A DNA stretch of 54,027 nucleotides. Source: a candidate division WS1 bacterium. GTDB lineage: Bacteria > Armatimonadota > Zipacnadia > Zipacnadales > UBA5352. The notes beneath the pieces are model-generated. The model was not told where the DNA came from and did not search any database. It saw nothing but the letters and a program-made list of their open reading frames with translations. The stretch is taken from the NCBI GenBank assembly GCA_012522765.1, contig JAAYJW010000372.1:1-54027 (forward strand), in the 5' to 3' direction. The translations under genes and the position numbers were made by a program. Shown one piece after another: positions 6,104 to 53,735 of the stretch (the stretch's first letter is position 1; each line of letters begins with the position of its first letter).

Positions 6104-6106
6104 AGT

Positions 6107-23400: not shown

Positions 23401-23567
23401 GGTGATGCGCCGGGATAGGCGGTCACCACCGCGACCACGGGGAAGGTGATGTCCGGCATCAGGTCGATCGGCAACTGCGTGAGCGCCACCGCCCCAAGCA
23501 CTACGACGCCCAGCACACACATCGCGATAAGAACTGGCCTGTTGATGGAGAATCGAGCTGGGTTCAC
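20457..23567 (-). CDS. RND efflux permease (AcrB/AcrD/AcrF, HAE1)
   Basis: FSINRPV, YPGASPAQVE, IGRIVDDSVVVLENIHRH (proton-relay DD), AQFES, RLRPIIMT and GGLTTSTFLTLFVIP. Confidence 0.96.
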   Translation of the reverse strand: MNPARFSINRPVLIAMCVLGVVVLGAVALTQLPIDLMPDITFPVVAVVTAYPGASPAQVEEFVTKPIEEAAAVVEDLESISSISQQDLSVVIIEFDWGKDMNWAAFDAREKVDPVIEALPGDVHRPLIMKIDPSIIMPMMTLNVTGMADMERLRDIAEDTIKPELEKLPGVAAANIYGGLQREIHVEVNWEKLAARQLAVAQVESALQRENRNIPAGFTTEGRREYTIRVIGEFDVVDEIGDIVVATRGGHPVYLRDVAEIRDTHQEIRSYARLNGDPAIGISLQKESGANTVAVSDAVREELEALGELLPEGVEVSITSEEADFIRASLENLYGVGLEGAILAMVIIFLFLATFRGTIIAALSIPLSALVTFVFMFFSNLTLNIITMGGLVLAIGRIVDDSVVVLENIHRHIESGEPVLDSAINGTEELWAAIAAITVTTMVMFFPLMFVGGMISVLFTPMALVVMLGLLASLIVSVTIVPLLSERMYSRGAHDRLEKTSGLLGPMNRALAAWSRTFDRVAQWYRRAIAWSLNHRAIVIAVAIGVFIASLSLVPLVGMEFFPSVEQDELTIVMETPVGSSVEYTNARAQEVEGLLAGVEERQHYAVTLGQAGGASAFGGGGGTRSANFTLKLHPRDERERTVTEIEDDLREKFAALPGVETRFEAGGGPGGGSDLEVRVLGDDLDMLAALAAEVQQKVEQTDGAIDVQISAEASNPEYHVLIDREEAGRLGLTVSDIGHSIQTQVRGTEQLTKFRAGDTEYDIKVRAREEDRGWVEQVRTTRLTTATGDMVPLSAIATVVPALGPTQISRNERERAITVSANTQGRALSDVVGDVDAQLSEMDWPQGYRYQFAGSEEDRAEAFGGMMTAIVVGVLLIYMILAAQFESLVQPLIIMLAIPLELIGVLGALLLTGTPLGIMAMLGVLMLTGIVVSNSILLVQMVNLMRHRGMALREALIEGGGVRLRPIIMTAMATLLAMVPLALAARTGSEMWKPLGVAAIGGLTTSTFLTLFVIPVAYSLSESAGGWISRRLHRE

Positions 23568-25267: not shown

Positions 25268-26676
25268 TGTGTCTCGACCTCCTGCTGCATCTGGTCCGAC
25301 AAACCCATGGCCGTCCGCAGTTGCGTTACCGCAAGCTGCCTGTCATACTCAGCATTCACAAGTGATGCCTCCGCGGCGGCGAGTGCGGTGTCGGCGTCAA
25401 TTACCTCGATGCCCGCCGCCAGGCCCTCACGGTATCTAAGTTGCGCCATTCTCCTCCACTCACGCGCTTCCACCAGGCCCTGTTCTGCGGACAGTATCCG
25501 CTCCTGAGCCTCCTGTACTCGCAGCCACGCCAGCATTACATCCAGCGACACCTGTTCGGTAGCACGCTCAACGGAAAGCTCCGCCGCTGCAACGCGAGCC
25601 TGCGTCGATTCCACTCGCCCATCGCGTGCTCCGCCGTCGAAGATCGGCTTCTGCGCGACGATCCCGACCTGCCACGACCAGTCCGTTCCGCCGAGCCCGC
25701 CGGCGCTCTGTCGCGCATACTGGCCGGTCAGCGCGACCGTCGGCGCCAACTCCTTCTCCGCCAGCCGCAGGCTCAGTCGGGCCATCCGAAGTGACGTCTC
25801 CGCGGAGCGGATCTCGGGTCGGCAGATGCGGGCGGTCTCGATCAATGACGCTACGTCATCATCCGGCATAGGCGGTGAAGGCGCGTCGGCAACGGTGATG
25901 GCAAGCCCTTGCGGCAGTGCGAGGATATCTCTCAGTTGCGCCTTCGCCTGCTCCACCGCGGTCTGCACGACGATAAGCTGTTCGTTCGCCCGCGCCAGTT
26001 CCGTCCGCGCCTGCACCACATCGAAATGCGCGACGACTCCGGCCTCCTCCAACAACTCAGCGTTTCGGACGTGTTCGGCTATCGCGGTGACCTGCGCGGC
26101 CGCCACTCCTGCAAGCTGAACTGACCGCAGCACGCCGTAGCTTATCTGACGCGCCCCCTGCGCCACCTGCAGTTGCGCGGTTTCCACCCCCTGTCGCGCC
26201 GCCTCGATGCCCTCCCGAGCGATATCCTCGCCAATCCCGACGCGTCCGCCGGTGTAGATAGGCAGGTTCGCGGAGATGGTTGCCTGATAGGCCTCCTCCT
26301 GCCCGACCTGCACCTCCATCGGCTCCTCGCCCTCGGCGCCGGGTAGCTGTATCGTGCTCACCGGCCCCATCCGTATGGCTGTCGCCGAGAGATCGACGGA
26401 GAGGTTGTCGGCGGCCTCCGCCTGCCGAAGCTGCCCCTCCGCCTCCGGGATGGATTGTTGCTGGATCAGGATCTGCGTGTTCCGCTCTCGGGCCCAACGG
26501 GCGGCGCTGTCAGGCGTCAGGACCACTGATCCGTCGCTGCCGAGCGTCACGTAGGCCGGGAGTTCCGGACACTCCACCTCCTGCGCGTACGCAGGCGGCA
26601 CAAAGACCACTGCCAACAATCCCGCCGCCCGGACCAGGCGGCGGATCCCCTCACATACCCCGATGTCACGCATCAT
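25264..26676 (-). CDS. TolC-family outer-membrane efflux protein
   Basis: NLPIYTGGR, RPEIRSAE, PIFDGG and RYREGLAAGIEVIDADTALAAAE. Confidence 0.92.
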   Translation of the reverse strand: MMRDIGVCEGIRRLVRAAGLLAVVFVPPAYAQEVECPELPAYVTLGSDGSVVLTPDSAARWARERNTQILIQQQSIPEAEGQLRQAEAADNLSVDLSATAIRMGPVSTIQLPGAEGEEPMEVQVGQEEAYQATISANLPIYTGGRVGIGEDIAREGIEAARQGVETAQLQVAQGARQISYGVLRSVQLAGVAAAQVTAIAEHVRNAELLEEAGVVAHFDVVQARTELARANEQLIVVQTAVEQAKAQLRDILALPQGLAITVADAPSPPMPDDDVASLIETARICRPEIRSAETSLRMARLSLRLAEKELAPTVALTGQYARQSAGGLGGTDWSWQVGIVAQKPIFDGGARDGRVESTQARVAAAELSVERATEQVSLDVMLAWLRVQEAQERILSAEQGLVEAREWRRMAQLRYREGLAAGIEVIDADTALAAAEASLVNAEYDRQLAVTQLRTAMGLSDQMQQEVETQ

Positions 26677-40062: not shown

Positions 40063-41367
40063 TCATGATATTAGCGCCCTGACTTCGCGGGCGATGATGT
40101 CGTCTATCTCCGGCACGAAGGGCGCGGGGCGCTCGTGAAAGCAGATCGAGCCCAGCGCCTCATGCCCGCCCTCCGGCAGCATCTGCGCCGTCGGGATATA
40201 CGCGTCGGTGTAGGTGCAGTAGCCGAGGAAGATCGTCTGCTGCTCCGGGAAGAGGTCCTTCACCGCGCGCCCGACTTCGGCCGTCACCTCGCCCGACATA
40301 GCGATGAGCTGAAGCGCGTCATTGAGTCGCCAGTGCGTCAGGTGCATGCGGAAGGCCTCCGGCACCGTGCCGGCGCGCATCTGCTCGAGCAGATCGCTCG
40401 CCCACAGGCGCATGATCGAGCGGTTCGCGGGCCGGTAGCCGTCCGGTATCTCCGTGTCGAAGGGGCTGCTCATGCTCATCAGTTCGTCGCGCGTGGGGAG
40501 CCGCGAGGCGTCGTAGGGTATCGCGAACTCGCGCTCGGCGCTGCTGAGGCTTAGTTCGATCGGCTTCATGTTGTCGGAGCGCACGAAGTCGGCGATGCCA
40601 CGCGCTACTTCGCGCCAGTACTCGCGATACGCCTCCTCGTCACCACGCTCGCTGATGCGGGTCATCACGCTCCCCGCGGCACCCTGCGCGAACGAGGTGA
40701 TGACGTTCTCGCCAAGCTCCTGCTTGAGCCCCTGCGCGATCTGCCCCGGCCAGTCGGCGCTGATGAGCAGCTTGCTCTTTGAGGTCGAGTGGCAGGCGTA
40801 GGAGTAGAGGACGCCGAGCAACTTGTTGTCGCGGTAGAACGCGAAGAGCGGCAACTCGGGATCGTAGTAGCCATCCTCGTTGATCCCGAGGCCCATGATC
40901 CCGGTCTCCGGGTTGCGCCTGCGGCGGTTGACGCCGAAGTGCGCCTCCGTGGTCCCGTGCTTCACGCGCACCGGCTGCAGGTCATCCAGCGCCGCCGCGA
41001 TGCCCTCGCGGATCGTCTGCTCAAGTCTGCAGAGATACTCACGGTCCACGGGCCAGTGCGGGTAGCAGCGCTGGAGGAAGAGCGCCGGCGCTGAGTGGGT
41101 ATGCGAGAGGTTCAGGACAAGTGACGCGCTCGGCAGGCCAAGCTCCGCCTCCGCCCAGAGCTTTGTGCGCCAGGAGAGATCGCGCGACCACTTGAGCAGA
41201 TCGGCGGTGAGGAGGACAAGTCGCGTTCCGGCATCGTCCTCGAGGGCGATGACTCGGAGGTAGAGCGGGTCGTCCACTCCCTGGCTACCCTCAGAGCGGC
41301 TGGGATAGCCAGCAAGAAACGAACCGACCGGTGGCGTGACATCCGCCTCAAAGAAGCCTGCGTTCAT
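40063..41367 (-). CDS. Neutral/alkaline ceramidase N-terminal-domain family hydrolase
   Basis: DVTPP...LAGY, DPLY, SHTHSAP, VNRR, YACHST, SADWPG, QGAAG, SGEV and YIPT. Confidence 0.85.
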   Translation of the reverse strand: MNAGFFEADVTPPVGSFLAGYPSRSEGSQGVDDPLYLRVIALEDDAGTRLVLLTADLLKWSRDLSWRTKLWAEAELGLPSASLVLNLSHTHSAPALFLQRCYPHWPVDREYLCRLEQTIREGIAAALDDLQPVRVKHGTTEAHFGVNRRRRNPETGIMGLGINEDGYYDPELPLFAFYRDNKLLGVLYSYACHSTSKSKLLISADWPGQIAQGLKQELGENVITSFAQGAAGSVMTRISERGDEEAYREYWREVARGIADFVRSDNMKPIELSLSSAEREFAIPYDASRLPTRDELMSMSSPFDTEIPDGYRPANRSIMRLWASDLLEQMRAGTVPEAFRMHLTHWRLNDALQLIAMSGEVTAEVGRAVKDLFPEQQTIFLGYCTYTDAYIPTAQMLPEGGHEALGSICFHERPAPFVPEIDDIIAREVRALIS

Positions 41368-41639
41368 CGGGGTACCTCCCACTGCCGCGCTAGCGTCGGG
41401 GCAGCATTCCTCTCCGGTGATGAATGGCCTCCTGCTAACGCATTTGGTCGCGCATGCGTGAACAGGCGTGGTAACGTTTGTGGCTCGGTTGAACATAGAC
41501 TGTTCATGCTGCGTCCGGGTACCATGACAACGGAGAGGTGGCCGCGTGGTGGGGGTAGACAAATAGCCGAGCAGACGGTATCTTTCCCCGGGGCGGCGCT
41601 TTGCCGGCCCATCACAATGGAAGCTCGCCGACACGCGGG

Positions 41640-42485
41640 GTGAAGCCGGTGGTCGGAAGCTGCAGCGTTGTCTTGAGCAGGAGTCTTCATTCGGACGATC
41701 GCGCTCGCGCACTCGAAGACGAGCTGGCTGAGCGACTGGTCGGGCGCGGCGTTGGCGTGCTCATGCTTCCTCACCTCTATCACCTCCGCCACGGTAGCGA
41801 ACTGTGGCAGGGAGTCGCCTCTCTTCCCGGCGAGATCGCCATCTGCGGGTGGCTCAATCCACGGCCTATCCGGTGTCTCGTGGAGCAGCATGTGGGCCGC
41901 GAAGCCACCTTTTGCTTAGACCTCGGAGCGCTCGCTTCAGTTGATGACGCGCTCGAAACGCTGGCGGGCTTTCTGCCGCAGGGCGGCGGTGAGGGCGAAC
42001 TGCGCGAACTCACCGAGCCGACTGCCGAGCGGTGGTATCCGGTGCTGGATTGCTCGCGCTGCACCTTTTGCGGACACTGCCTGCAGTTCTGCCTCTTTGG
42101 CGTCTACGAGCGGGATGAACAGGGGCGAGTGATTCCGGTGAAGCCCGACAACTGCAAGCCCGGGTGCCCGGCCTGCAGCCGCGTTTGCCCGCAGGGCGCG
42201 ATCATCTTTCCGCTCAGTGACGAACCCGCCATCGCCGGTGCGCCGGGCACGCTCATGCAGCCCGATGCCGCCGCCCGGCGGATGTACTACGTCCGCACAG
42301 GCCTCAACTGCCCCGTTTGTGGTGAAGTGAGCGAGGCGGGCGATCTCTCCTCGCGTGATGCTCCGGTCTGCGAGGAGTGCGGACGGCCTCTGGGCCCCGG
42401 CATCGCTGCCGATTCACCCGTTCATGCAGAAATAGATGCGCTGATCGATTCGCTCGACCGCATGGCCGGCGGTGAAGGCGAGTGA
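41640..42485 (+). CDS. 2x[4Fe-4S] ferredoxin-domain protein with C-terminal CxxC...CxxC
   Basis: RWYPVLDCSRCTFCGHCLQFCLFGVY, NCKPGCPACSRVCPQGAIIFP, then CPVC...CEEC. Start is uncertain (GTG 41640). Confidence 0.85.
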   Translation: MKPVVGSCSVVLSRSLHSDDRARALEDELAERLVGRGVGVLMLPHLYHLRHGSELWQGVASLPGEIAICGWLNPRPIRCLVEQHVGREATFCLDLGALASVDDALETLAGFLPQGGGEGELRELTEPTAERWYPVLDCSRCTFCGHCLQFCLFGVYERDEQGRVIPVKPDNCKPGCPACSRVCPQGAIIFPLSDEPAIAGAPGTLMQPDAAARRMYYVRTGLNCPVCGEVSEAGDLSSRDAPVCEECGRPLGPGIAADSPVHAEIDALIDSLDRMAGGEGE

Positions 42486-43975
42486 CTGCTGTATCGGGAA
42501 AGCCGGTCGTGCTTACCGCCGATCGCACCCTCATGGCCGACCACCGCACGCTCTTCGGCGGTATGATTGCGGCCAGCCAGACGACCACGACCCCACGCCC
42601 GCTGATGGACCACCTTCTCGCGCCGCGCTCGCGGCTCTCTGTGGCTCCCCTGGGACTGAGGCGAGTGGAGGCGGCGCTGCTTTGCGACGGCTTCTCCGAC
42701 GGAGACGTGGCGGTGGTGGAACCTGAGCGGCTGGCTGAGGTCATCGGGCCCGAGACGCGGGTCATCGGCGTGAGCGCCGGTGAGGCATGCGGTCTCGGGA
42801 TGAACTCCACCACGATGACCGCCATCGCCGGAGGCGAGATCTATCCGAGGGCGTTGGTGCTGGAGCTTATGCGCGAAATCGGTCGCCTGCGCGAGCGCGC
42901 TCCGGATGCGCGCGTGGTCCTTGGTGGTCCGGGCGCATGGCAACTGGTGGCCAACGATGCGCTGCGAGTGGAGCTTGGTGTGGACCACGTGGTGCACGGG
43001 CCAGTGGAGGGGAATGTCGCGGGACTGATGCACGCCATGGCCGCCGAAGACGACCTGCCGGTGCTGCTGGAGGGGGGTGCGGTTGATGCCGCGTCCATCC
43101 CGGCGATTCGTGGCGCATCAGCGATGGGGGCGGTGGAGCTTTCGCGCGGCTGCGGGCTGGGCTGCACCTATTGCGTGATGGGGCGGGAGGCAATGCGGCA
43201 TCTGCCGGAGGAGACGATTCTCGCCGACGTGAGGACGAACATCGCGGCGGGGATGCGCGGGATTGCTGCCATCAGCGAGGATCTGCTTCGTTACGGCTGC
43301 ACCGGCTCGAAGCCTCATCCCGAGCGGCTGATTGCTCTGCTGCGGCAGATGCGGGAAATCCCCGGGGCCGGGCTCATTCAGACCGACCACGCGAACATCA
43401 TCTCGGTCGCGGCCTACTCTGACGCTGAGCTTGCACAGGTGAGGGAACTGATGGTTGGCGAGACCGGCTGCCGGCATCCGTGGATGAATCTGGGCGTGGA
43501 GTCGGCCTGCGGGCAGTTGTTGGCACAGAGCGGTTCGGCGAAACTTGGGGGCACTGCTCCGGCGGAGTGGGGTGAGTTCGCGGCTGAGCAGCTTCGACGA
43601 CTGGTGCGAGCGGGGTTCATGCCGATGGCGAGCCTGATAATGTGCCTGCCGGGGGAGACGCCCGAGCATGTGCGGGCGACGCTTGAGTGGGTGAAGGGGC
43701 TATCGCGGGAGCCGCTGACGATCTTCCCGGTGCTCTACGCGCCCATTGACGGCAGCTCGCCACCGACGCGCGCCGATCTGACGCGGGAGCACTGGCGGCT
43801 GATCGGGGCTTGCTACGACATCAATTTCCGTGAGGTGCCGCGGATGTTCCGTGACGGTCAGGCTGCGGTCGGCGTGCCGTGGGCGCGAAGGATGGCGCTG
43901 CAGCTGCTCGGCTACGGACAGGTCGGGCTCTGGAGCGCGCTTTTTGCCTGGCACGGATGGCGCGCCGCACAATGA
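42482..43975 (+). CDS. B12-binding-domain radical SAM enzyme
   Basis: ELSRGCGLGCTYC (CX3CX2C), VVLGGPGAWQ, LGVES and LPGET. GTGA overlap with the ferredoxin gene. Confidence 0.92.
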   Translation: MTAVSGKPVVLTADRTLMADHRTLFGGMIAASQTTTTPRPLMDHLLAPRSRLSVAPLGLRRVEAALLCDGFSDGDVAVVEPERLAEVIGPETRVIGVSAGEACGLGMNSTTMTAIAGGEIYPRALVLELMREIGRLRERAPDARVVLGGPGAWQLVANDALRVELGVDHVVHGPVEGNVAGLMHAMAAEDDLPVLLEGGAVDAASIPAIRGASAMGAVELSRGCGLGCTYCVMGREAMRHLPEETILADVRTNIAAGMRGIAAISEDLLRYGCTGSKPHPERLIALLRQMREIPGAGLIQTDHANIISVAAYSDAELAQVRELMVGETGCRHPWMNLGVESACGQLLAQSGSAKLGGTAPAEWGEFAAEQLRRLVRAGFMPMASLIMCLPGETPEHVRATLEWVKGLSREPLTIFPVLYAPIDGSSPPTRADLTREHWRLIGACYDINFREVPRMFRDGQAAVGVPWARRMALQLLGYGQVGLWSALFAWHGWRAAQ

Positions 43976-45726
43976 ATATTGACCGCGTCCGCCTTGACCA
44001 CGCGATTGATGCGGCCCGGGCGGAGTTGCTCGGGAGGCGCAGCGCCGGGCCGTGGTGGGAGGGGCATCTGTCATCCTCCGCGGTCTCGACGGCCACGGCA
44101 GTGATCGCCCTGCAGTCAGCGGGTTTCGACGAGGATGGCTCGCTCGTTGAGCGGGCAACGGAATGGCTGGTCGGCACGCAGAATGCCGATGGCGGCTGGG
44201 GTGATACTCCTAACAGCCAGAGCAACATCGCGGCAACGGCTCTGACCTGTGCGGCCCTGACGATGGCGCCGGGAGATCATCTCACGGCGCTTGGAGGCGC
44301 CGGTGGATGGATCGAGAGCGAGGCGCCAGGCGGTGATGTGGCGACTGCAATCCGCCGGCGCTACGGAGACGACCGCACCTTCCAGGCGCCGATCCTTGCG
44401 GCATGTGCGCTGGCGGGGCTGGTGGAGTGGGAGGAAGTGCCGCCGCTGCCCTTCGAGCTATCGGTGCTGCCCCGCGGGCTTCATGCGATGCTTCGGCTGC
44501 AGGTGGTCAGCTACGCGCTTCCCGCGCTGATTGCGGTGGGCGCGCTGATACACACGCGGCGCAGGGGCAATCCGGCCGCGCGCATACTGCGCTCGGTGTC
44601 GCTGGGGCGAGCGCTGTCGCTCCTGCCGGACCTGCAACCGAGCAGCGGCGGCTTCCTCGAAGCCGCGCCGCTGACGGCATTCGTGGCGATGAGTCTAGTG
44701 CCGCTGCTCGGCCGCGACCATGTGGTGGTCGAGGGCTGCCTGGAGTTTCTGCGGGAGGGCGTGCGTGGGGATGGCAGTTGGCCCATCGACAGCAACCTTT
44801 CCGTCTGGGTCACTACCAACGCGCTGATGGCGTTGCGCCAGTCGGGAGGCATCCCCGGGGACATCGCCGAGGGGGCGCATGAGTGGCTGCTCAAGCAGCA
44901 GCTTGCGCACACGCATCCCTTCACCGGCGCGGGGCCGGGAGGATGGCCGTGGACGCACCTGCCGGGAGGCGTCCCGGACGCGGACGACACCGCGGGCGCG
45001 GTGATAGAGATGGCCGGCACGGGGGAGGGGGCGGCGGCCAGGGCGGGCGTGGTGTGGCTGAGCGGGCTGCAGAACACCGACGCCGGATGGCCGACCTTCT
45101 GCCAGGGATGGGGGCGCCTGCCGTTTGACAGCAGTTCGCCGGATATCACCGCTCATGCGTTGCGCGCGATAGACGCGACGCTGAAGATGGATGATGATGG
45201 TGGCGGCTATCTGGCACGCCTGCTCGCGCTCAACATGGGCGCCACGATGAAGCGCGGTTTCGGCTATCTGGCCGCGACACAACATGAAGATGGCTCCTGG
45301 GCGCCGCTGTGGTTTGGCAATCAGAGGGTTCGTGGTGAGGCGAACCCGGTCCTTGGGACCGCCCGGGTGCTGGCAGCGTGGGCGGACTGCGGGCACGGGG
45401 ACGATCCTCATGCGCGGCAGGGGCTTGACTATCTGCTGGGCGCGCAGAATGGCGGCGGGGGATGGGGCGGCGGCAAGGGCATCACCAGCAGCGTCGAAGA
45501 GACGGCACTGGCGGTGAGCGCGCTTTCTCGCTTTGCCGGCACTGAGCAGGTTGATGAGGCCATTTCGGATGGTGTGGACTACCTGCTTGCACACGTTGAA
45601 GATGGAAGCTGGGTTGAGCCGTCTCCCATCGGCCTTTACTTTGCGAGCCTGTGGTATACTGAAGATCTCTACCCGATCACATGGACGCTGGAGGCGCTTG
45701 GAAGAGTGCGGAAGCTCGTCGGTTGA
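43972..45726 (+). CDS. Class II terpene cyclase (squalene-hopene cyclase / SqhC-like, two (alpha/alpha)6 barrels)
   Basis: Catalytic VPDADDTA (44971-44994). QW repeats QNADGGWG, QPSSGGF, DGSWP, QNTDAGWP, QHEDGSW and QNGGGGWG. ATGA overlap with the radical SAM gene. Confidence 0.9.
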   Translation: MNIDRVRLDHAIDAARAELLGRRSAGPWWEGHLSSSAVSTATAVIALQSAGFDEDGSLVERATEWLVGTQNADGGWGDTPNSQSNIAATALTCAALTMAPGDHLTALGGAGGWIESEAPGGDVATAIRRRYGDDRTFQAPILAACALAGLVEWEEVPPLPFELSVLPRGLHAMLRLQVVSYALPALIAVGALIHTRRRGNPAARILRSVSLGRALSLLPDLQPSSGGFLEAAPLTAFVAMSLVPLLGRDHVVVEGCLEFLREGVRGDGSWPIDSNLSVWVTTNALMALRQSGGIPGDIAEGAHEWLLKQQLAHTHPFTGAGPGGWPWTHLPGGVPDADDTAGAVIEMAGTGEGAAARAGVVWLSGLQNTDAGWPTFCQGWGRLPFDSSSPDITAHALRAIDATLKMDDDGGGYLARLLALNMGATMKRGFGYLAATQHEDGSWAPLWFGNQRVRGEANPVLGTARVLAAWADCGHGDDPHARQGLDYLLGAQNGGGGWGGGKGITSSVEETALAVSALSRFAGTEQVDEAISDGVDYLLAHVEDGSWVEPSPIGLYFASLWYTEDLYPITWTLEALGRVRKLVG

Positions 45727-45806
45727 CCGGATCTGTTTGCTGCAACGCCCTTCAAGCCCGGATGCGGGGTGGCAGGAGAGGGCGCTTATATTGCCCGTGG
45801 AGGACG

Positions 45807-47234
45807 ATGCCAATGTCAGCAGTAACTGCTCGCACGATCATCGCGACAATAGCCCTGATCGCGCTGGTCGGCGCCGGTGTGTGCGGCGCCGATGATTACG
45901 TGGGCTGGCGAACTGACGGGACCGGGGAGTATCCGGACGCCACGCCGGTTACCACGTGGTCGGCGGAGATGAACGTCATCTGGAAGACGCCGATGTCCGC
46001 AAAGAGCAACTCGCTGCCGACGATCGTCGGCAATCGCCTCTTCGTCTGTTCCGAGCCTGCTACGCTGCTGTGCGTTGACAAGACGACCGGCGCGATCCTC
46101 TGGGAGGCGTCAAACAACCCGGCGGACATCGCGCCTGCCGAGGGGGTCGCCGATCTCGAGGCCAAGACGGCTGAGTTTAACCGTCTGCGGGGCGAGATCG
46201 GCAAGGCGTCTCGCGAACTACGTAATGTGCGCAAGCAGATTCAGGACGCGCCGACTGCCGAGTTGAAGGCGCGCCATGACGAACTGCAGGCGCAGATTGC
46301 GGCGCTCAACGAGCAGATCAAGCCGCTTCGCGAGACGTGGTATGTGCGCCCGGTTACTCATGATTACAACGGCTACTCCTCTCCGACGCCGATCAGCGAC
46401 GGGCAGCACGTCTGGGCGGTCTTCGGCAATGGCATCGCCGCCTGCTACGACATGGACGGCAATCGCATCTGGGCGCGTTTCATCGAGAGGCCGCCAAACG
46501 ACTGGGGAACGTCGAACACACCGGTGCTCGTGGATGGCAAGCTGATCCTGCACCTCGGACAGATGCGGGCACTTGAACCGCTCACCGGCGTCGAGGTCTG
46601 GGCCCAGCCCAAGGCAGGCTGGAACTGGGGTACTTCGTGGGTGCATGAGATTGAGGGCGTGCCGCTGATCATCACCTCCAACGGTGATACCGTCCGTGCC
46701 GACGACGGTACGATCATGGCCAGCGGGCTGGGCAGGCTCCGCTGGGGCTCGGGGCCGATGGTGGACGATGGTGTGCTTTACTACATTGACAACCAGGACG
46801 GCGAGTACATCAGCCGCGCCTGGCAGTTGCCGACGACGCTCGCCGAGCCATTCCAGCCGCAAATGCTCTGGCAGATCACGCCGAAGAAAGATCGTTACTA
46901 CGCCTCCCCGGTCATACTTGACGGGCTAATCTACGCGATCACCCAGGCGGGTGTGCTCTCGTGCATTGATGCCGCCACGGGGGAGATCGTCTACGAGCAG
47001 AACCTGCAGACGGGTAAGCCGGTCTTCTTTGCGAGTATCGTCCTCGCGGGCGACCTGCTCATGGCTTCCCAGGAGAGCGGAACTACGGTCATCTTCCAGC
47101 CCGGGCGCAGCTACGTTGAGGTGGCGCGCAACGACCTCGGCGAGATGGTCCGCAGTACACCGGTGTTTGATGGCGACCTGATGTACGTGCGCGGCTATGA
47201 GCATCTGTTCTGCATAGGTAACGCTGCCGGATAG
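45807..47234 (+). CDS. Exported PQQ-binding-like (BamB-like) beta-propeller protein
   Basis: Signal peptide; WSAEMNVIWKTP, LLCVDKTTGAILW, CYDMDGNRIW, YASPV, CIDAATGEIVY and STPVFDG. Confidence 0.88.
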   Translation: MPMSAVTARTIIATIALIALVGAGVCGADDYVGWRTDGTGEYPDATPVTTWSAEMNVIWKTPMSAKSNSLPTIVGNRLFVCSEPATLLCVDKTTGAILWEASNNPADIAPAEGVADLEAKTAEFNRLRGEIGKASRELRNVRKQIQDAPTAELKARHDELQAQIAALNEQIKPLRETWYVRPVTHDYNGYSSPTPISDGQHVWAVFGNGIAACYDMDGNRIWARFIERPPNDWGTSNTPVLVDGKLILHLGQMRALEPLTGVEVWAQPKAGWNWGTSWVHEIEGVPLIITSNGDTVRADDGTIMASGLGRLRWGSGPMVDDGVLYYIDNQDGEYISRAWQLPTTLAEPFQPQMLWQITPKKDRYYASPVILDGLIYAITQAGVLSCIDAATGEIVYEQNLQTGKPVFFASIVLAGDLLMASQESGTTVIFQPGRSYVEVARNDLGEMVRSTPVFDGDLMYVRGYEHLFCIGNAAG

Positions 47235-47249
47235 CGGAGGACATGATCG

Positions 47250-48989
47250 ATGTCCCACGGCCAACTCGTGCCTGAGGCGCACGCACCAGGTGAGATCAAG
47301 CAGGTGCCGCAGGAGGCGGCGGTCCGGGAGAAGATCCGGACCGCTGCCGCCGACATCATGCATGGCAGACCCCGTGCAAGTGCCCCCGGACGAGACCTAC
47401 TCGCCGAGCTTGGCGCCGAGTTGCTGCAGCGCCTCGAGCTGCCGCCGACTTGCCTCGGCTTCACGATGGTGGCGCTGAGCAACGCATTCTGGCGTGAGCA
47501 ATACGAGGCGGTGCCGCTGCATCGGCGCTTGCTGCTGCTGCCCAAGTGCCTGCGGGACCCCGTCGCCTGCAGGGGGACGTTCGACTCGGTCGGCCTCAAC
47601 TGCGCCGGCTGCGGTGCGTGCGTAATCGGCGACCTCGTGGCGAAGGCACAGACGCTCGGATATTCGGTGATCGTGGCCGAGGGCACCTCGTCGGTCATCA
47701 TGAAGGTGCTCGAAGGAGAGGCCGATGCCATCCTCGGTGTCGCCTGCCTTGATTCGCTCGATGAGTCCTTCGAGCCGATCGCTGACCTCGGAGTGCCGAA
47801 TCAGGCGATCCCCCTCCTGAGGGACGGCTGCGAACGTACGGAGACAGAGCCCGCGCTGATTGCGCAGTTGATGACCGTCATGCAATCGTCAGCGATCCAG
47901 ACCACGCGCACGTCGGTTCCTCTGCTACGGGCCACCCGTGAGATATTCGCCGCCTCGTCTCTTGCCACGCTGCTGGGACTGCACGTCTCGGACGGTGCGT
48001 TTGCCTCAGGGGCGGCCGATGAGCCGCTTCTGCAGACCGAGGCGCTGGGTCTTGACTGGCTGGTGTGTGGCGGCAAGCGCCTGCGGCCGTTCGTGACCGT
48101 CGCGGCTTACGCACTCGGCCGCCATGGTGTGAGGTCGCTGGAGCCGCGCGCGAATGCAGGCGAGATGCTCGATGAGCCGGTGCAGGCGCTGGCGGTGGCG
48201 ATCGAGGCGCTGCACAAGGCGTCGCTGATCCATGACGACATCGCTGATGGTGACGAGTTCCGCTACGGCCGCCGCACACTGCACGCAAGCCACGGCACCG
48301 GGATCGCAATCAACGTGGGCGACTGGCTGGTGGGGCTTGGATATCGGCTTGCCGGGGACCAGGCGGAGGCTTTCGGAGGCGATCGGGCGGCCGAGATCGC
48401 GACGCGACTGGCGAAGGCACAGCTTGCGCTCTGCAAGGGACAGGGCGCGGAGCTTGCGTGGATCGGCAGCGAGAGCAGGGCGCTGCGGGCAGCCGACGCG
48501 CTTGCGATCGGCGCGCTGAAGACCGCTCCGGCGTTCGAAGTTGCGCTGCATGCGGGTCTCATCGCGTCTGGAGCGCACTACGAGCGTGACGTAGTCGCGC
48601 GCTTCGCCACCTACCTCGGTGAGGCCTATCAGGTGCTCAACGATCTTGAGGACTGGCGCGACGATGTCGGCAACAAGGTGTCGGTGGGGCTTGATGTGCT
48701 CAGCGGGCGGCCCACGATGCTGCGCGCCTTCGCCACTGAGGCGGGTGGGTGGGAGCAACTGGCTCGTTTGCGTGAGGAGTCCGATCCGCAGGCCATCGTG
48801 GCGTCTGTGCGGCGACTGTACGATGAGACCGGGGCGTTTGAGAAGACGAGGGCGCTGCTGGGGGGGCTGCGTAACCGGTGCCTGACGCTTGCCGAGGGTA
48901 TGAGGCCGGAGGCACTTGGCGAGTTACTGCGCTTCCTGACGCGGACAGTCCTGCGCGAGCGAGGCGAACCGCGGACGCGGGAGGTCTGA
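47250..48989 (+). CDS. DUF116 (Cys-rich) domain fused to trans-isoprenyl diphosphate synthase
   Basis: N-terminus RRLLLLPKCLR...C...LNCAGCGACVIG...AEG...ILGVAC...IPLLRDGC. C-terminus GGKRLRP, HKASLIHDDIAD, GQ, LKT and YQVLNDLED. Confidence 0.9.
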   Translation: MSHGQLVPEAHAPGEIKQVPQEAAVREKIRTAAADIMHGRPRASAPGRDLLAELGAELLQRLELPPTCLGFTMVALSNAFWREQYEAVPLHRRLLLLPKCLRDPVACRGTFDSVGLNCAGCGACVIGDLVAKAQTLGYSVIVAEGTSSVIMKVLEGEADAILGVACLDSLDESFEPIADLGVPNQAIPLLRDGCERTETEPALIAQLMTVMQSSAIQTTRTSVPLLRATREIFAASSLATLLGLHVSDGAFASGAADEPLLQTEALGLDWLVCGGKRLRPFVTVAAYALGRHGVRSLEPRANAGEMLDEPVQALAVAIEALHKASLIHDDIADGDEFRYGRRTLHASHGTGIAINVGDWLVGLGYRLAGDQAEAFGGDRAAEIATRLAKAQLALCKGQGAELAWIGSESRALRAADALAIGALKTAPAFEVALHAGLIASGAHYERDVVARFATYLGEAYQVLNDLEDWRDDVGNKVSVGLDVLSGRPTMLRAFATEAGGWEQLARLREESDPQAIVASVRRLYDETGAFEKTRALLGGLRNRCLTLAEGMRPEALGELLRFLTRTVLRERGEPRTREV

Positions 48990-48991
48990 GC

Positions 48992-49903
48992 GTGGGCTAC
49001 CTCGACGTGCTGGACGGCATCCTTCGCCCGGGGGTGCACCTGCTTGGAGAGGGATTCGCGGCGCTCGAATGTGGCTGGATTGAGCGCCAGGAGTTGGCCG
49101 GTGGCGGTTTCCGCGGGCGCAGCGGCGGCGATGATCTCTACTACACGGACTTTGCATTGCGCGCAGTGGACCTCATTGGGCCGCAGTCACCTCTGTTCGC
49201 GACAACGGCAGAGCGGATGCGTCACAATCTGCCCGCGCCACTCGACGTTGTTTCTGCGTTCAGCATCCTCAGTTGCGCCCGCACGCTCTCCCGCCACGGC
49301 CACGCCATCAGCGCGGATCAGCGTCACATTCGCAAGCTGCTTGCGCGGCAGACGCTGCCGGAGGGCGGTTTCGGTGTCAACAAGTCCAGCGAGACCAGCG
49401 CCTATCAGACCTTCCTCGGCACGCTCTGCCGCCAACTGCTCGGAGATGAGGCCCCGGTGGCTGCCGACTGTGACGCAATTCGCAGGCTGCAGCGTGAAAG
49501 CGGCGGATTCGCAGAACGCGAGGCTGGCGATGTGGCGCAGACGAATGCCACCGCTGCTGCCGCGGCGGTACTGCTGATGGGCTCCGCGCTGCAATCTGAC
49601 GACGCCGAGGGGGTTACGCGTTTCGTCGCCTCTATGCAGGCAGAGGACGGTGGTCTGCGCGCACATGCCGAGGCACGCGGAGGTGACCTTCTGTCGAGCT
49701 TCACCGCGTTGCTGACGCTGTGTCTGCTGGGGGCGCCGGCGGCGCTGGAGCTCCCGGCGCTGGGTCGGTTTGTGAAGGGCGCAGTCAGGCCCCGTGGAGG
49801 CTTCGGGGCCTCACAGCACGATCCCGGAGCGGACGTCGAGTACACCTACTACGGGATCGCCACTCTCGGTCTGCTGCGCTCGCTGGTGGAGGCGGACTGC
49901 TGA
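48992..49903 (+). CDS. Single-domain prenyltransferase/squalene oxidase repeat protein (GGTase-beta-like barrel)
   Basis: QELAGGGFRGR, DLYYTDFA, QTLPEGGF, LQRESGGF, MQAEDGG, GDLLSSF and GGFGA...DVEYTYYG. GGGAGG RBS. Confidence 0.85.
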   Translation: MGYLDVLDGILRPGVHLLGEGFAALECGWIERQELAGGGFRGRSGGDDLYYTDFALRAVDLIGPQSPLFATTAERMRHNLPAPLDVVSAFSILSCARTLSRHGHAISADQRHIRKLLARQTLPEGGFGVNKSSETSAYQTFLGTLCRQLLGDEAPVAADCDAIRRLQRESGGFAEREAGDVAQTNATAAAAAVLLMGSALQSDDAEGVTRFVASMQAEDGGLRAHAEARGGDLLSSFTALLTLCLLGAPAALELPALGRFVKGAVRPRGGFGASQHDPGADVEYTYYGIATLGLLRSLVEADC

Positions 49904-51198
49904 TGCGCATCGTGCACCTCGCCGCCGGAGCGGGCAGTATGTATTGCGGCGGATGCGTTCGCGATGCCGCGATGGCGCGCGCCCTCATCGCACGGGGGCA
50001 TGACGTGCAGATCGTCCCGCTCTACACGCCGCTGCGAATTGATGCGGATCTTCCGGTGACGGAGGTGCATCTCGGCGCGCTCAACGCGTACCTCCAGCAA
50101 CTGTCCGGCATCTTCGCGAGAGTCCCGCGACCTATCGCGCGTGTGCTCGACAATGAGCGGCTGTTGCGCTTCGTTTCGCGTTTCGCGGTCAGCACGAAGC
50201 CCTCGCAGCTTGGGCCGATGACGGTCTCGGTGATCGCAGGTAGCGATGGCAGGCAGCGCGCGGAACTGAGTCGCCTCGTGGACTTCCTCGCGTGCGAGGC
50301 GCGGCCGGATGCGGTGACGATCACCAACTCGATGCTCTCCGGCGTGGCGCCGGAGATGAAGCGGCGGCTGCGTGTGCCGGTGCTCTGCGAGGTGAAGGGC
50401 GAGGATGGCTTCATTGACGCCATCCCCGAGCCGCATCGATCTGAGGCGCTAACGCTGCTGAGGCGTAATGCAGCCTCGGTGGATCGCTTCATCTCGCCCA
50501 CCGCAGCCTACGCCGATCACATGGCCCAGTGGCTGGAGGTGGAGCGTGAACGGATCGCGGTGGTGAGCACCATCATTGACGCGGAGGCATTGCATCGTGC
50601 CGGGCCACGCCTTCGCCGGCCGTTCACCGTCGGCTATCTCTCCGTGATCACACCGCGCAAGGGTCTGCACGTGCTGGTTGATGCACTGGCGATCCTGGTT
50701 CGTGAGGGCCGCGATGTGAGGTTGCGCGCTGCGGGGCAGGTGCTGGATCGGCGCTACTGGCGGGAGATTCGCGCCACCATCCGCCGGGAGCGCCTGAGTG
50801 ATCGCGTGGAATACCTGGGGGAAGTCAGCGTGGCGGATAAAGTGACGCTTTTGCACTCGTTGAGCGCATTCTGCCAGCCGTCAATCAAGCCGGAGGTGCT
50901 TGGGACGGCCGCGCTGGAGGCACAGGCGGCGGGCGTGCCGGTAGTCGCGCCTGATGAAGGTGTCTTCCCGGGGATGCTCGGGCTCACCGGTGGTGGGGTG
51001 ATGTTCGAGTCGGGGGATGTTGACGCCCTCGCAGAGCGGCTGGCTGAGCTGATGGATGATCCGGTACGCGCGGATGCGATGGGGGAGAGTGGGGCGGCGC
51101 AGGTTGCGCGGCAGTTTTCAGCGGAGTTGGCTTCTGAGACCATGGAAGCGATACTGACGGCACTGGAGGCGCAGGGAGATGGCGAAGAAGCTGTGTAA
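49903..51198 (+). CDS. Glycosyltransferase family 4
   Basis: TGATG overlap with the previous gene. MRIVHLAAGAGSMYCGGC, GHDV, KGLHVLVDA and EVLGTAALEAQAAGVPVV (E-X7-E). Confidence 0.92.
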   Translation: MRIVHLAAGAGSMYCGGCVRDAAMARALIARGHDVQIVPLYTPLRIDADLPVTEVHLGALNAYLQQLSGIFARVPRPIARVLDNERLLRFVSRFAVSTKPSQLGPMTVSVIAGSDGRQRAELSRLVDFLACEARPDAVTITNSMLSGVAPEMKRRLRVPVLCEVKGEDGFIDAIPEPHRSEALTLLRRNAASVDRFISPTAAYADHMAQWLEVERERIAVVSTIIDAEALHRAGPRLRRPFTVGYLSVITPRKGLHVLVDALAILVREGRDVRLRAAGQVLDRRYWREIRATIRRERLSDRVEYLGEVSVADKVTLLHSLSAFCQPSIKPEVLGTAALEAQAAGVPVVAPDEGVFPGMLGLTGGGVMFESGDVDALAERLAELMDDPVRADAMGESGAAQVARQFSAELASETMEAILTALEAQGDGEEAV

Positions 51199-51331
51199 GC
51201 TGGCAAAGAAGCTCGAGTTGAAGGAGATTGCTGCGGCGGCGCGAAGCGGTGACTTCATCTGCAGCAAGTGCGGGCGGACCGCCTCGGACAAGAAGTCTCT
51301 GTGCAGGCCGGTGGGGGTGGAGGAGCTGTAG
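51179..51331 (+). CDS. 50-aa Lys/Cys-rich small protein (missed by the ORF track)
   Basis: GGAGG RBS at 51165-51169. Translates as MAKKLCKLAKKLELKEIAAAARSGDFICSKCGRTASDKKSLCRPVGVEEL*, with strongly G/C third positions. Confidence 0.7.
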   Translation: MAKKLCKLAKKLELKEIAAAARSGDFICSKCGRTASDKKSLCRPVGVEEL

Positions 51332-51350
51332 CCCGAGCCGTGAGAGGGGA

Positions 51351-53735
51351 ATGACAATGTTGGGCGAGTTCTCGATCGTTGCTGCACTGGTCTTTGGCCT
51401 GCTGTTCGCCGCGACAGGTGTCGCGCGTCCGGATGAATTCGGTGATCCGGATCGCGCGGCGGAGATAGCGTCTATGCTGCCTGCTAACCCGGGAGGGCCG
51501 GGGCGCCCGATCAGCGATCGCGAGGCATGGGAGGCGCTAGTCGCTGCTGGCGCCTGCAGCGGCGCGATCGCGACCGCGGAGAAGCATCTCGCCACGCCGC
51601 TCCCGGACCTGCCCGACGAGCTCTTCCTCGACTTCTCCCGCACTGGCAACCGCACACGCTGGCAGAGCGTCTCCGGTCAGCGCCGCGGCAGGCTCGCGCC
51701 GCTGGTGCTGGCCGAATGTGCGGAGGACCAGGGGCGTTTCATCGCGGCCATCGAGGAGCTTGTGGCGGCGCTCTGTGCCGAACGCACGTGGGTCATGCCC
51801 GCGCATGACCGGAGCCTCGCGAACTTCAACCGCGAGCAGATTGACATCGACCTCGCCTCATCCGCGCTGGGGTGGCAACTGGCGCTTACGAACTACCTGC
51901 TTGGCGACCGCCTCAGCGACGAGACACGCGACGTGATCCGCACCAACGTCGCCGAACGCGTGCTGGAGCCGGCGCTCGCCATGTACCGGGGCGACCGCGA
52001 GCCCAACTGGTGGATGCGCACCACCAGCAACTGGAACGCGGTCTGCCTCGCGGGAGTGACCGGGGCGGCGCTGGCGCAGGTCGAGGACCGCAACCTGCGC
52101 GCGGATTACATCGTTGGTGCGGAGAAGTCGTCAGAGGGCTTCCTGAGGGGCTTCCCGGCGGACGGCTACTGCACCGAAGGCCTCGGCTACTGGAACTACG
52201 GCTTCGGGCACTACATCCTGCTGGCGGAGGCGGTATATCAGGCGACCGGAGGCGGCGTTGACTTCATGGCGCGCCCCGGCGTCGCCGCGCCGGCCACCTT
52301 CGGCGCCCGCATTCAGATCATGGGCGGTGTGGCGCCCGCCTTCGCCGACTGCGCGATCAACGCCCGCCCCGACAGCCGCTGGATGCACTACATCAACGGA
52401 CGCTACGGCCTCCGCCTCGATGCACACGATTCTTTTGAGCCGGCGCGGGCGTTCAGCAGTGACCTCCAGGGCGCGACGATCTTCGGCTTCCCCAACTCCG
52501 CCAGCGAAGGCCCGCTGCTCGATGGCGCCGACCTCGGCTCGCCGCTGCGGGCGTGGTTCAATGACGCGGGCATCCTCGTCAGCCGTCCTATTCCCGATAG
52601 CGATTGCCTGCTCGGGGTCGCGCTTAAGGGCGGCAACAACGCCGAGCATCACAACCACAACGATGTTGGCTCATACGTCTGCGTAGTGCAGGATCGCCCG
52701 GTGCTGCTTGATCCCGGCAGCGAGGTCTACACGGCGCGTACCTTCAGCAACCGCCGCTACGAGAGCAACGTGCTGAATTCGTGGGGACATCCGGTGCCGG
52801 TCGTTGCGGGGCAGCTTCAGCGCACGGGGAGCGATGCCCACGGCGTGGTCCTCGCCAGTGACTTCAGCGATGAGCGCGACACGCTCACGCTGGACATCGG
52901 TTCGGCCTACGAAGTGCCCGAACTGACGCGCCTGGAGCGTAGCTTCGTATACGATCGCACCGGTGATGGCTCGCTCACAGTGAGCGACGCTGTAGCCTTC
53001 GCCGAACCGAGGAGCTTCGAGACCGCGCTGATCACCGACGGCTCGTGGGAGCGCGTGGATGGGCAGACGCTGCTGGTGCGCGATGGCAACCGCGCCGTGA
53101 ACGTGCGCGTGGACACCGGTGGCTTGGCGTGGGAGCTTGTGGTGGATGAGATCGAGGAGGACGCGAAGGCGCAGCCTGCACGCCTCGGCATCCGGCTGAG
53201 CGAGCCCGTCTCGGAGGCGACGGTGACGGTGATGATCATGCCGATCCGCGACTTCGGGCTCACGGGCGAGAGCGTGCTCTTCAACGGCGACTTCGCGCTC
53301 GGAGCGGACGGCTGGTCGATCTCGGCGAACTCGCTGGGCGAGATCAGCGACGAGCAGGTGGCGGTGGGGGAGCGTTCGCTGAAGATCACCGACGAGAGCG
53401 ACACTGCCGGGGCGAACGTCACCTCATCGCGCATCAGGGTTGAGGGCGCGGGAAAGTGGCTGCTGCGCGGGCAGGCGCGGATCGAGAGCGGCTCGGGCAT
53501 CGGGATGTACATGCGCTACTACGACGAGAACGGTGCGCGTCTCAACGAGGCCGACCGGCGTGGCAACATTCCGCCGGTGGGGACGCTTGAGGGCCCGGTG
53601 GGGGAGTGGGCGCCCTTCGAGTTCGCCTTCGAGACGCCCGCGGGCACCGCAAGCATGGACCTGTGGATCCACAGCTTCAATGCCGCTGTGGTCACCGCGT
53701 TCATCGGCGACCTGCGGATTGTGCCGGGGGAGTAG
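51351..53735 (+). CDS. Heparinase II/III-family lyase-like protein with C-terminal CBM4/9-like domain
   Basis: Signal-like N-terminus; TWVMPAH, IDL, SNWNAVC, DGYCTEGLGYWNYGF, KGGNNAEHHNHNDVGSY, DPG and HPVPVV. C-terminal LFNGDF...GERSLKITD. Confidence 0.88.
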   Translation: MTMLGEFSIVAALVFGLLFAATGVARPDEFGDPDRAAEIASMLPANPGGPGRPISDREAWEALVAAGACSGAIATAEKHLATPLPDLPDELFLDFSRTGNRTRWQSVSGQRRGRLAPLVLAECAEDQGRFIAAIEELVAALCAERTWVMPAHDRSLANFNREQIDIDLASSALGWQLALTNYLLGDRLSDETRDVIRTNVAERVLEPALAMYRGDREPNWWMRTTSNWNAVCLAGVTGAALAQVEDRNLRADYIVGAEKSSEGFLRGFPADGYCTEGLGYWNYGFGHYILLAEAVYQATGGGVDFMARPGVAAPATFGARIQIMGGVAPAFADCAINARPDSRWMHYINGRYGLRLDAHDSFEPARAFSSDLQGATIFGFPNSASEGPLLDGADLGSPLRAWFNDAGILVSRPIPDSDCLLGVALKGGNNAEHHNHNDVGSYVCVVQDRPVLLDPGSEVYTARTFSNRRYESNVLNSWGHPVPVVAGQLQRTGSDAHGVVLASDFSDERDTLTLDIGSAYEVPELTRLERSFVYDRTGDGSLTVSDAVAFAEPRSFETALITDGSWERVDGQTLLVRDGNRAVNVRVDTGGLAWELVVDEIEEDAKAQPARLGIRLSEPVSEATVTVMIMPIRDFGLTGESVLFNGDFALGADGWSISANSLGEISDEQVAVGERSLKITDESDTAGANVTSSRIRVEGAGKWLLRGQARIESGSGIGMYMRYYDENGARLNEADRRGNIPPVGTLEGPVGEWAPFEFAFETPAGTASMDLWIHSFNAAVVTAFIGDLRIVPGE

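Follow-up and report, generated by a model that had tools for sequence, protein, structure and literature searches.

We have analysed a cluster of seven genes for predicted isoprenoid synthesis in a candidate division WS1 bacterium of the phylum Armatimonadota, the central members of which encode a class II terpenoid cyclase and a polyprenyl synthase fused to a DUF116 domain. The cluster lies within a 54,027 nt stretch of DNA, referred to below as the window, which is one entire contig (C190) of a 4.9 Mb genome assembled in 521 contigs and 97.7% complete. Nearly all named relatives of the proteins encoded in the window belong to Armatimonadota metagenome-assembled genomes (MAGs).

Organization of the cluster

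The seven genes occupy positions 41640–51198 and are all carried on the + strand. The first (41640–42485) encodes a 281 aa ferredoxin-domain protein and starts at GTG 41640, its stop codon overlapping the start of the second gene (GTGA, 42482), which encodes a 497 aa radical S-adenosylmethionine (SAM) enzyme with an N-terminal domain of the B12-binding type (42482–43975; Pfam Radical_SAM, 32.6 bits, over the cut-off). A second overlap (ATGA, 43972) leads into the gene for the 584 aa class II terpenoid cyclase, composed of two toroid domains (43972–45726; SQHop_cyclase_N and SQHop_cyclase_C, 64 and 98 bits, respectively). The gene for a PQQ-like, BamB-type beta-propeller (45807–47234; PQQ_2, 69 bits) is followed by that for the 579 aa fusion (47250–48989), in which DUF116 (100 bits) and polyprenyl_synt (114 bits) are combined, with GGAGGA preceding both the propeller ATG at 45807 and the synthase ATG at 47250. 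A 303 aa zinc-less toroid of the prenyltransferase type (48992–49903; Prenyltrans, 78 bits) is encoded from a GTG start 3 nt past the synthase stop, and the stop codon of this gene overlaps the start of the last one (TGATG, 49901), which encodes a 431 aa family 4 glycosyltransferase (GT4; 49903–51198; Glycos_transf_1, 98 bits). A scan for promoters and terminators returned matches at chance level only.

Gene calls and direct reading of the sequence agree with an earlier note on this DNA, which described seven co-oriented genes in this interval, and the three overlapping junctions that it listed can all be read directly. Three of its protein assignments hold as well: the DxDD class II cyclase, for which both SQHop_cyclase domains are matched and the DxDD motif is invariant; the DUF116-polyprenyl synthase, with both Pfam domains matched in one protein; and the second prenyltransferase-fold barrel, which is recognized by Prenyltrans and has the beta subunit of Rab geranylgeranyltransferase (RabGGTase beta) as its best PDB match.

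A five-gene core recurs across phyla

Gene content was compared at 20 loci around Armatimonadota cyclase homologues and 65 loci around synthase-fusion homologues in species-representative genomes, onto which the window proteins were mapped. Counts refer to those 43 loci whose flanks extend at least 6 kb upstream and at least 3 kb downstream of the anchor gene; they are slightly inflated, as three locus pairs represent the same contig fetched twice. Genes for the ferredoxin, radical SAM, cyclase, synthase fusion and toroid proteins all lie within 8 kb in 33 of the 43 loci. GT4 is present at 15 of the 43 and an orthologous propeller at 11. The functional unit is the five-gene core, with the propeller and GT4 as lineage-specific additions, so that the glycosylated product envisaged in the earlier note applies to part of the lineages only. 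Titled loci include Planctomycetota (Thermoguttaceae, Pirellulales, Phycisphaerales, Tepidisphaerales, Gemmataceae and others), Armatimonadota, candidate division WS1, Verrucomicrobiota and Kiritimatiellota. Because the gene order recurs in other phyla, the cluster is not a chance arrangement. The check for synteny across phyla that had been suggested is thereby answered, the core recurring in Armatimonadota, Planctomycetota and Verrucomicrobiota. The earlier note also placed similar cores in Planctomycetota and Bacteroidota; the former is borne out by the loci found, while the latter is not, as none of the 65 loci from the synthase query is from Bacteroidota. Hints for Bacteroidota consist of Atlas clusters of Fdx-like proteins and of Fibrobacteres-Chlorobi-Bacteroidetes (FCB) taxa listed in the cyclase clade in the available text of McShea et al. 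(2025, bioRxiv).

At ten of the 43 loci, at least one core gene is missing from the vicinity, and the cyclase, the synthase fusion or both are absent in four (L038, L042, L092, L096 and, in part, L116). At Gemmataceae-type loci, the synthase fusion is found with the cyclase only in L087 and L088 and alone in L092, L096 and L116. The same five functions also occur in a rearranged order, ferredoxin, radical SAM, synthase, toroid and cyclase (L037, L039, L051, L052, L090 and L112). The radical SAM protein of this variant is a divergent form of 624 aa, and a CobW-like GTPase and a GcvH-like protein of the lipoyl/biotinyl type are often encoded upstream (L037, L039, L051, L052 and L112).

A second conserved gene set is observed beside the cluster in many genomes, upstream of the ferredoxin gene (for example in L034, L036, L044, L056 and L075). 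Its products are two propellers, of which one is PQQ-like and the other contains collagen repeats, an NHL-repeat protein, a pair of polyferredoxins including one that resembles NapH (Fer4_5), a fusion of the NuoE/NuoF type, an oxidoreductase similar to GltD, and an ABC ATPase accompanied by a large FtsX-type permease. The genome from which the window derives carries this set on a separate contig, C109 (L124), at 446–15869. The set might function in low-potential electron supply or in lipid export.

Association of the two central genes was also followed at the genome level in samples of 301 Armatimonadota and 201 Planctomycetota genomes, in which related genomes are not independent and for which counts are therefore given without a statistical test. 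In Armatimonadota, the cyclase is detected in 42 and DUF116 in 41 genomes, 40 of which carry both; the three discordant genomes, with either the cyclase or DUF116 alone, are 78–86% complete. Co-occurrence persists when the genes are located on different contigs (e.g. G048, G095 and G018). Orthologs of the radical SAM enzyme (E≤1e-40) are present in 35 of the 301 genomes, every one a cyclase carrier, and the seven other cyclase carriers are lineages with a variant radical SAM protein. In Planctomycetota, the cyclase is found in 53 of 201 genomes, all 53 of which carry DUF116; in 51 the frame spans 480 aa or more, a length that indicates fusions. DUF116 is found without the cyclase in 36 planctomycete genomes, 34 of which have it in frames below 480 aa, the standalone form, the remaining two (G423 and G324) giving weak matches in long frames.

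The cyclase and the supply of squalene

By sequence, the closest PDB match of the window cyclase is the squalene-hopene cyclase (SHC) of Alicyclobacillus acidocaldarius (E 1e-12). The DxDD motif, DADD at residues 336–339, aligns with DVDD of that enzyme (1gsz), and its three Asp residues are present in 67 of 67 aligned relatives, an alignment in which conservation reaches at least 97% at 107 positions, many being aromatic. The window protein scores 84.3 bits against the squalene-hopene cyclase equivalog TIGR01507 (62.4 bits in the genome scan), far under the cut-off of 431.1 bits, while true SHCs of Armatimonadota reach 640–812 bits in frames of 644–766 aa. In a quick maximum-likelihood tree of 67 rows, constructed with three duplicate loci left out and four true Armatimonadota SHCs included, a very long branch with full support divides the cyclase family from the four true SHCs. 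Armatimonadota and Planctomycetota sequences are interleaved within the family, and sequences from Gemmataceae/Gemmatales MAGs (L087, L090, L091 and L100) are nested in it at 45–48% identity. Clustering with these Gemmataceae MAG sequences, rather than with published references, suggests that the window cyclase most likely belongs to the published 'SHC-like' clade discussed below.

Two further observations on cyclase homologues emerged. Contigs L086 and L088 belong to MAGs bearing the title 'uncultured Alcaligenaceae', and their genes for the cyclase and synthase fusion are nested in the Gemmataceae group of the tree. This appears to reflect an error in binning or labelling and not a carrier among the Proteobacteria. 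An Armatimonadota genome of the same family as the window (G292:C227) carries no SHC-like cyclase and no DUF116; it encodes two adjacent cyclase homologues, of 154 and 146 bits against TIGR01507, that are neither true SHCs nor members of the window cyclase family.

A hopene cyclase would be expected to be accompanied by squalene supply, monitored here as PF00494, the squalene synthase/phytoene synthase (SQS/PSY) family that includes Sqs, HpnC, HpnD, CrtB and CrtM. No PF00494 match is detected across the 4.9 Mb of the window's own genome, and the squalene supply expected of a hopene cyclase is thus not observed there, which also answers the search for hpnCDE/sqs that the earlier note had advised. 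PF00494 is present in 160 of 301 Armatimonadota overall, whereas the 42 cyclase carriers include only 13 genomes with it and 29 without. As a control, a true hopene cyclase scoring over the cut-off is found in 52 of the 301 genomes, and all 52 are PF00494-positive. Five planctomycete MAGs labelled 'Brocadiaceae', for which completeness is not stated, carry the cluster, and neither PF00494 nor a true SHC was found in them; lacking a true SHC, they were set aside as a test of the anammox squalene puzzle. The claim that the pathway is squalene-independent is therefore upheld in part, by the window's own genome and by the 29 carriers lacking the SQS/HpnCD family, and qualified by the 13 carriers that possess it.

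Hopanoid clusters normally pair SHC with HpnCDE or Sqs and with HpnH, HpnG and HpnP, and have radical SAM and glycosyltransferase genes nearby for bacteriohopanepolyol tailoring. The window cluster shares with them a class II DxDD cyclase of one superfamily and the presence of a radical SAM and a glycosyltransferase gene close by, and differs in that squalene synthesis genes are absent from it, with a dedicated head-to-tail synthase in their place, in the distance of its cyclase from the hopene cyclase model, and in that its radical SAM protein gives no HpnH-, HpnJ- or HpnP-type NCBIfam match (E≤0.001). The last result bears on the statement that HpnH and HpnG are absent from the cluster, although no search was aimed at hpnH or hpnG themselves. 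Were this nonetheless an ordinary hopanoid-type cluster, the cyclase would convert squalene made elsewhere, or taken up, into hopene, and its neighbours would be unrelated or would act in tailoring. Both the Pfam and the source annotations name squalene-hopene cyclase, the DxDD motif is intact, and Santana-Molina et al. (2020, Mol Biol Evol) mention, in the text available, community squalene uptake for organisms that possess SHC but no synthase. Given the low TIGR01507 score, the long branch from true SHCs, the strict linkage of the cyclase to its own synthase and the contrast between 29 of 42 carriers without an SQS/PSY gene and 52 of 52 true-SHC genomes with one, we consider such a role very improbable.

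The DUF116-polyprenyl synthase fusion

The synthase half of the fusion is recognized by PF00348 (polyprenyl_synt) at 114.2 bits against a cut-off of 27. The first aspartate-rich motif (FARM), DDIxD (D329-D330-I-x-D333), is present in all 28 synthase sequences aligned, as are A324 and S325, located at positions −5 and −4 of the FARM. Small residues at these positions are a pattern found in medium- and long-chain trans-synthases, and the best PDB matches are a mix of geranylgeranyl diphosphate (GGPP), hexaprenyl and octaprenyl synthases. The second Asp-rich motif reads N-D-L-x-D in the window protein and in 25 of the 28 sequences and D-D-L-x-D in three. The DUF116 half contains seven Cys conserved in 27–28 of the 28 sequences, and no PDB relative of this domain was found by sequence. 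Makarova et al. (2015), in the part of the paper available, predict a flavodoxin-like fold and an electron-transfer role for DUF116 and note its fusion to a polyprenyl synthetase in Pirellula staleyi.

The genome from which the window derives contains two PF00348 genes only, an IspA-like farnesyl diphosphate (FPP)/GGPP synthase located beside ispH and the fusion, which leaves the fusion as the sole candidate for a chain beyond the housekeeping product. A single UbiA-family gene, resembling decaprenyl-phosphate phosphoribosyltransferase, is present, and neither a MenA- nor a CtaB-type UbiA enzyme was found in this genome, so that we reject a role of the synthase in supplying menaquinone or haem side chains, the sole UbiA protein being DPPR-synthase-like. 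The fusion is presumed, from these comparisons, to supply the isoprenoid chain of the pathway. The isoprenoid repertoire of this genome, as seen on contigs C248 and C452 (L119 and L122), appears minimal. A 2025 preprint on a Bipolaricaulota isolate lists, in a figure legend, a DUF116 protein, ispH, SHC, adenosyl-hopene transferase and polyprenyl synthetase within one 'terpenoid' cluster, which hints that the association of DUF116, synthase, cyclase and radical SAM enzyme also exists in unfused form.

The composition of the fusion raises the question of whether the chain it makes is regular. Assisted by the ferredoxin, the radical SAM enzyme or both, it could perform a reductive, Fe-S-dependent, non-head-to-tail coupling that yields a squalene-like or irregular hydrocarbon, and thus be an anaerobic substitute for SQS or HpnCDE. 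Chrysanthemyl diphosphate synthase, a plant irregular coupling enzyme derived from FPP synthase, has the same Asn change in its second Asp-rich motif as 25 of the 28 sequences here, and an SQS/PSY gene is not found in most carriers. A Cys-rich domain of predicted electron-transfer role (Makarova et al., 2015, as available) is moreover fused to the synthase in carriers. The canonical Asp is however kept in three of 28 sequences, which rules out the Asn as a firm marker of irregular coupling, and the usual motifs by which elongating synthases bind isopentenyl diphosphate (IPP) and the allylic substrate are retained (GGKRxR, KT and FARM). DUF116 pairs strictly with the SHC-like cyclase and never with a true SHC alone among the 301 Armatimonadota, a true SHC is missing from the five MAGs labelled 'Brocadiaceae' that carry the cluster, and no precedent for Fe-S-dependent prenyl coupling was found in the literature searched. 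We therefore regard irregular coupling as quite improbable.

Chain length bears on a further alternative, in which the cyclase would act on GGPP or a C25 diphosphate and the product would be a glycosylated natural product tailored by the radical SAM enzyme rather than a membrane lipid. At 584 aa, the cyclase is shorter than the true SHC frames of the same phylum, and the IspA-like synthase has small residues before its FARM, indicating that GGPP may already be made. The tailoring genes, GT4 and radical SAM, are typical of biosynthetic gene clusters, and distribution within phyla is patchy, which combined with the interleaving of phyla in the tree suggests transfer. Conversely, a second dedicated synthase with long-chain-type residues is unnecessary for a C20 product, the gamma domains of the clade are recognized by a triterpenoid-type and not a diterpenoid profile (McShea et al., 2025, available text), and presence in 53 of 201 Planctomycetota, with a core conserved across phyla, fits a physiological lipid better than a niche metabolite. 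A short-chain metabolite is thus unlikely.

Redox proteins, toroid, propeller and glycosyltransferase

PF04055 (Radical_SAM) matches all 28 radical SAM sequences aligned, in which the CxxxCxxC cysteines C224, C228 and C231 are the only invariant ones. The best NCBIfam match, TIGR04013, scores 75 bits against a cut-off of 251. Compared as a profile with PDB, the family resembles RimO/TM_1862 (4e-9) and MiaB (2e-7), and automatic names given to its relatives in Atlas are of the MtaB type. Methylthiotransferases of the MiaB/RimO/MtaB group possess three conserved N-terminal Cys for an auxiliary cluster. As no invariant Cys is found beyond CxxxCxxC in the 28 sequences, a MiaB/RimO-type methylthiotransferase is ruled out. 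Related radical SAM clusters are recorded by Atlas in Planctomycetota and, as leads only, in Bathyarchaeota and Nitrososphaerota.

The longest open reading frame (ORF) for the ferredoxin-domain protein encodes 294 aa from TTG 41601; relatives align from approximately residue 20 of this ORF, making GTG 41640 the likely start. Fer4_9, Fer4_7, Fer4_21 and Fer4_10 are matched at residues 148–201 of the 294 aa ORF, all under their curated cut-offs (Fer4_9, E 2e-5). An N-terminal domain of ∼130 aa, which is variable, precedes the 2x[4Fe-4S] core of the protein, and the core is followed by a tail rich in Cys; among 51 relatives the dicluster core alone is conserved. Its gene is co-linear with that of the radical SAM enzyme in most loci, and the protein presumably passes electrons to the radical SAM enzyme, the DUF116 domain or both.

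The beta subunits of protein prenyltransferases hold their zinc in the toroid through Asp, Cys and His ligands. A profile of the 303 aa toroid matches RabGGTase beta best among PDB entries (2.8e-23), followed by class II cyclases (∼1e-15) and, weakly, MstE (6e-3). When aligned to 3pz1_B, the Asp ligand is kept while Cys is replaced by Leu and His by Tyr, and no invariant Cys or His and no DxDD is found among 25 toroid relatives. Loss of the Cys and His ligands rules out a zinc-dependent protein prenyltransferase. The cluster also differs from the RabGGTase system in encoding no alpha subunit, and the toroid differs from MstE in lacking DxDD, with no check made for a DxD of the MstE type. The toroid gene always adjoins the synthase gene, and its product may be an isoprenoid binder or a second cyclase-like protein. 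The propeller has a hydrophobic, signal-peptide-like N-terminus and a coiled-coil insert, and its orthologs are encoded between cyclase and synthase. Three GT4 domains score over their cut-offs, Glycos_transf_1 at 97.7 bits and Glyco_trans_1_4 and Glyco_trans_4_4 at 41.0 and 40.5 bits, respectively, and the protein thus combines the Glycos_transf_1 C-domain and Glyco_trans_4 N-domain of the GT4 family.

A proposed pathway to a cyclic isoprenoid

On balance, we think that a cyclic isoprenoid, most likely a membrane lipid, is probably made by the products of this operon through a self-contained pathway that does not involve squalene. In such a pathway, the DUF116-polyprenyl synthase would extend FPP or GGPP, provided by the other prenyl synthase, to a regular all-trans polyprenyl diphosphate longer than C20, and the DxDD motif of the SHC-like cyclase would protonate the terminal double bond, forming several rings at that end of the chain. 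The radical SAM enzyme, receiving electrons from the co-translated ferredoxin protein, could then modify the chain or the rings, with C-methylation or another change at a C-C bond most likely. The isoprenoid would also be bound by the zinc-less toroid, serving either as a partner or as an additional cyclase-like protein, and this toroid and the Fe-S/radical SAM module would be obligatory components. GT4 would add a sugar to a hydroxyl in the lineage of the window, and the predicted secreted beta-propeller would work outside the cytoplasm. Gene content, motifs, synteny, co-occurrence and the absence of SQS/PSY are direct observations, from which we infer what substrate is used, how long the chain is, in which order the steps take place, what the radical SAM enzyme and DUF116 catalyse, and both the product and its role in membranes. 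An irregular, squalene-like precursor is the main rival to this pathway, a short-chain metabolite and plain cyclization of squalene being lesser ones.

Several points weigh against the pathway as proposed. MAG incompleteness and phylum sampling limit all claims of absence. Of the 13 carriers with an SQS/PSY gene, five also have a true SHC, and squalene is thus available to some carriers. A redox DUF116 domain has no role in ordinary chain elongation, and the model leaves the fusion unexplained. The Asn-first form of the second Asp-rich motif departs from canonical DDxxD and could reflect altered chemistry, or may be neutral as three of the 28 sequences keep Asp; in addition, RYG replaces the usual RRG after the FARM in 28 of 28. 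For the B12-binding domain PF02310, the window protein scores 17.7 bits (E 0.0034), below the threshold of 32.1 bits, and 18 of 28 aligned relatives match it at E≤0.01 (best 6.7e-8), so that of the B12/radical SAM enzyme proposed earlier, the radical SAM part stands, and the matches to the B12 part come mainly from relatives. The Gemmataceae loci L087 and L088 have the cyclase and synthase with no radical SAM or ferredoxin gene nearby, and the role assigned to the toroid is a guess.

Relation to known systems and significance

Cyclic terpenoids regulate membranes and constitute the principal molecular fossils left by microbial life. A more specific interpretation, which we put forward as speculative and rather doubtful, is that the five-gene core is a biological source of polycyclic regular polyprenoids of the tricyclopolyprenol type, with a chain of C30–C40 or more and rings at the omega end, made anaerobically by bacteria of the Planctomycetes-Verrucomicrobia-Chlamydiae (PVC) group and Armatimonadota and subject to Fe-S/radical SAM modification. 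Ourisson is said to have postulated 'tricyclopolyprenol' as the compound from which the extended tricyclic terpanes (cheilanthanes) found in sediments and oils derive. If the product were a cyclized regular polyprenol, it would bear on orphan biomarkers, and in a tricyclopolyprenol-type product the Fe-S/radical SAM modification could itself be a diagnostic biomarker. A 2026 preprint, in its available text, places cheilanthanes among the biomarkers that lack a completely characterized pathway, and the accessible part of a 2026 geochemistry paper names tricyclohexaprenol as parent of tricyclic terpanes of up to 30 carbons and also notes a possible algal origin. No paper on cheilanthane biosynthesis by a bacterial cyclase was found in the literature searched.

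The 'SHC-like' cyclases were defined by Santana-Molina et al. (2020), who, in the text available, take planctomycete genomic context to suggest 'different precursors to squalene', with context support in their supplementary figure S10. The window cyclase shares with that clade a divergent two-domain architecture with DxDD kept, occurrence in PVC bacteria including Gemmataceae and a context pointing to a non-squalene precursor, and at 584 aa it falls within the 550–700 aa range given for the clade in the accessible text. Novelty is consequently below that implied by the earlier note, as a non-squalene precursor for planctomycete SHC-like cyclases is already in print (Santana-Molina et al., 2020, available text). 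McShea et al. (2025) list PVC, FCB, Spirochaetota and Acidobacteriota as carriers of the clade and, in the portion available, describe its function as undemonstrated even for Gemmata obscuriglobus, in keeping with the earlier statement that no product has been assigned. Within the available texts, 'Armatimonadota' does not appear in McShea et al. (2025), nor 'radical SAM' in either that preprint or Santana-Molina et al. (2020), and no description of this gene set was found in the literature searched.

The sporulenol pathway of Bacillus (HepS/HepT, YtpB and SqhC), cited by Santana-Molina et al. (2020, available text) as an example of a non-squalene precursor, resembles the proposed pathway in that a polyprenyl diphosphate synthase feeds a regular chain to an SHC homologue. 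It differs in that the window cluster encodes no YtpB-type enzyme and adds a radical SAM enzyme, ferredoxin, DUF116 and toroid, and in that SqhC branches beside SHC while the window clade is far from SHC (McShea et al., 2025, available text). Epoxy-polyprenyl cyclases (Lon15 and AtoE), a sister clade in the available text of McShea et al. (2025), act on all-head-to-tail C25–C40 chains. These enzymes, mostly of Actinomycetes, need an epoxidized substrate derived from O2, in contrast to the window cluster, which encodes several Fe-S proteins and no oxygenase. The present analysis defines a five-gene set for co-expression in place of the cyclase by itself, provides evidence against squalene as the substrate to test, and adds a second carrier phylum. 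The roles of DUF116, toroid and radical SAM enzyme, which no known pathway explains, are the most interesting part of the cluster, and why a DUF116 domain rich in Cys should be fused obligately to a prenyl synthase is a biochemical puzzle in its own right.

Neighbouring genes

An RND efflux operon, encoding an AcrB-type pump, a HlyD-type adaptor and an outer-membrane factor, is located 15 kb upstream of the cluster (20457–26676, − strand), and no link between the two was seen. Genes flanking the cluster in the window, encoding heparinase II/III-like, ceramidase-like and iron-containing alcohol dehydrogenase proteins and a 318 aa ORF, are not conserved beside it at the other loci, apart from one weak alcohol dehydrogenase match in L081. 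The 549 aa neutral-ceramidase-like protein is encoded at 40063–41712 on the opposite (−) strand. On the other side, an 835 aa protein with an N-terminal hydrophobic segment and weak matches to heparinase II/III and a carbohydrate-binding module is encoded at 51228–53735 (+ strand).

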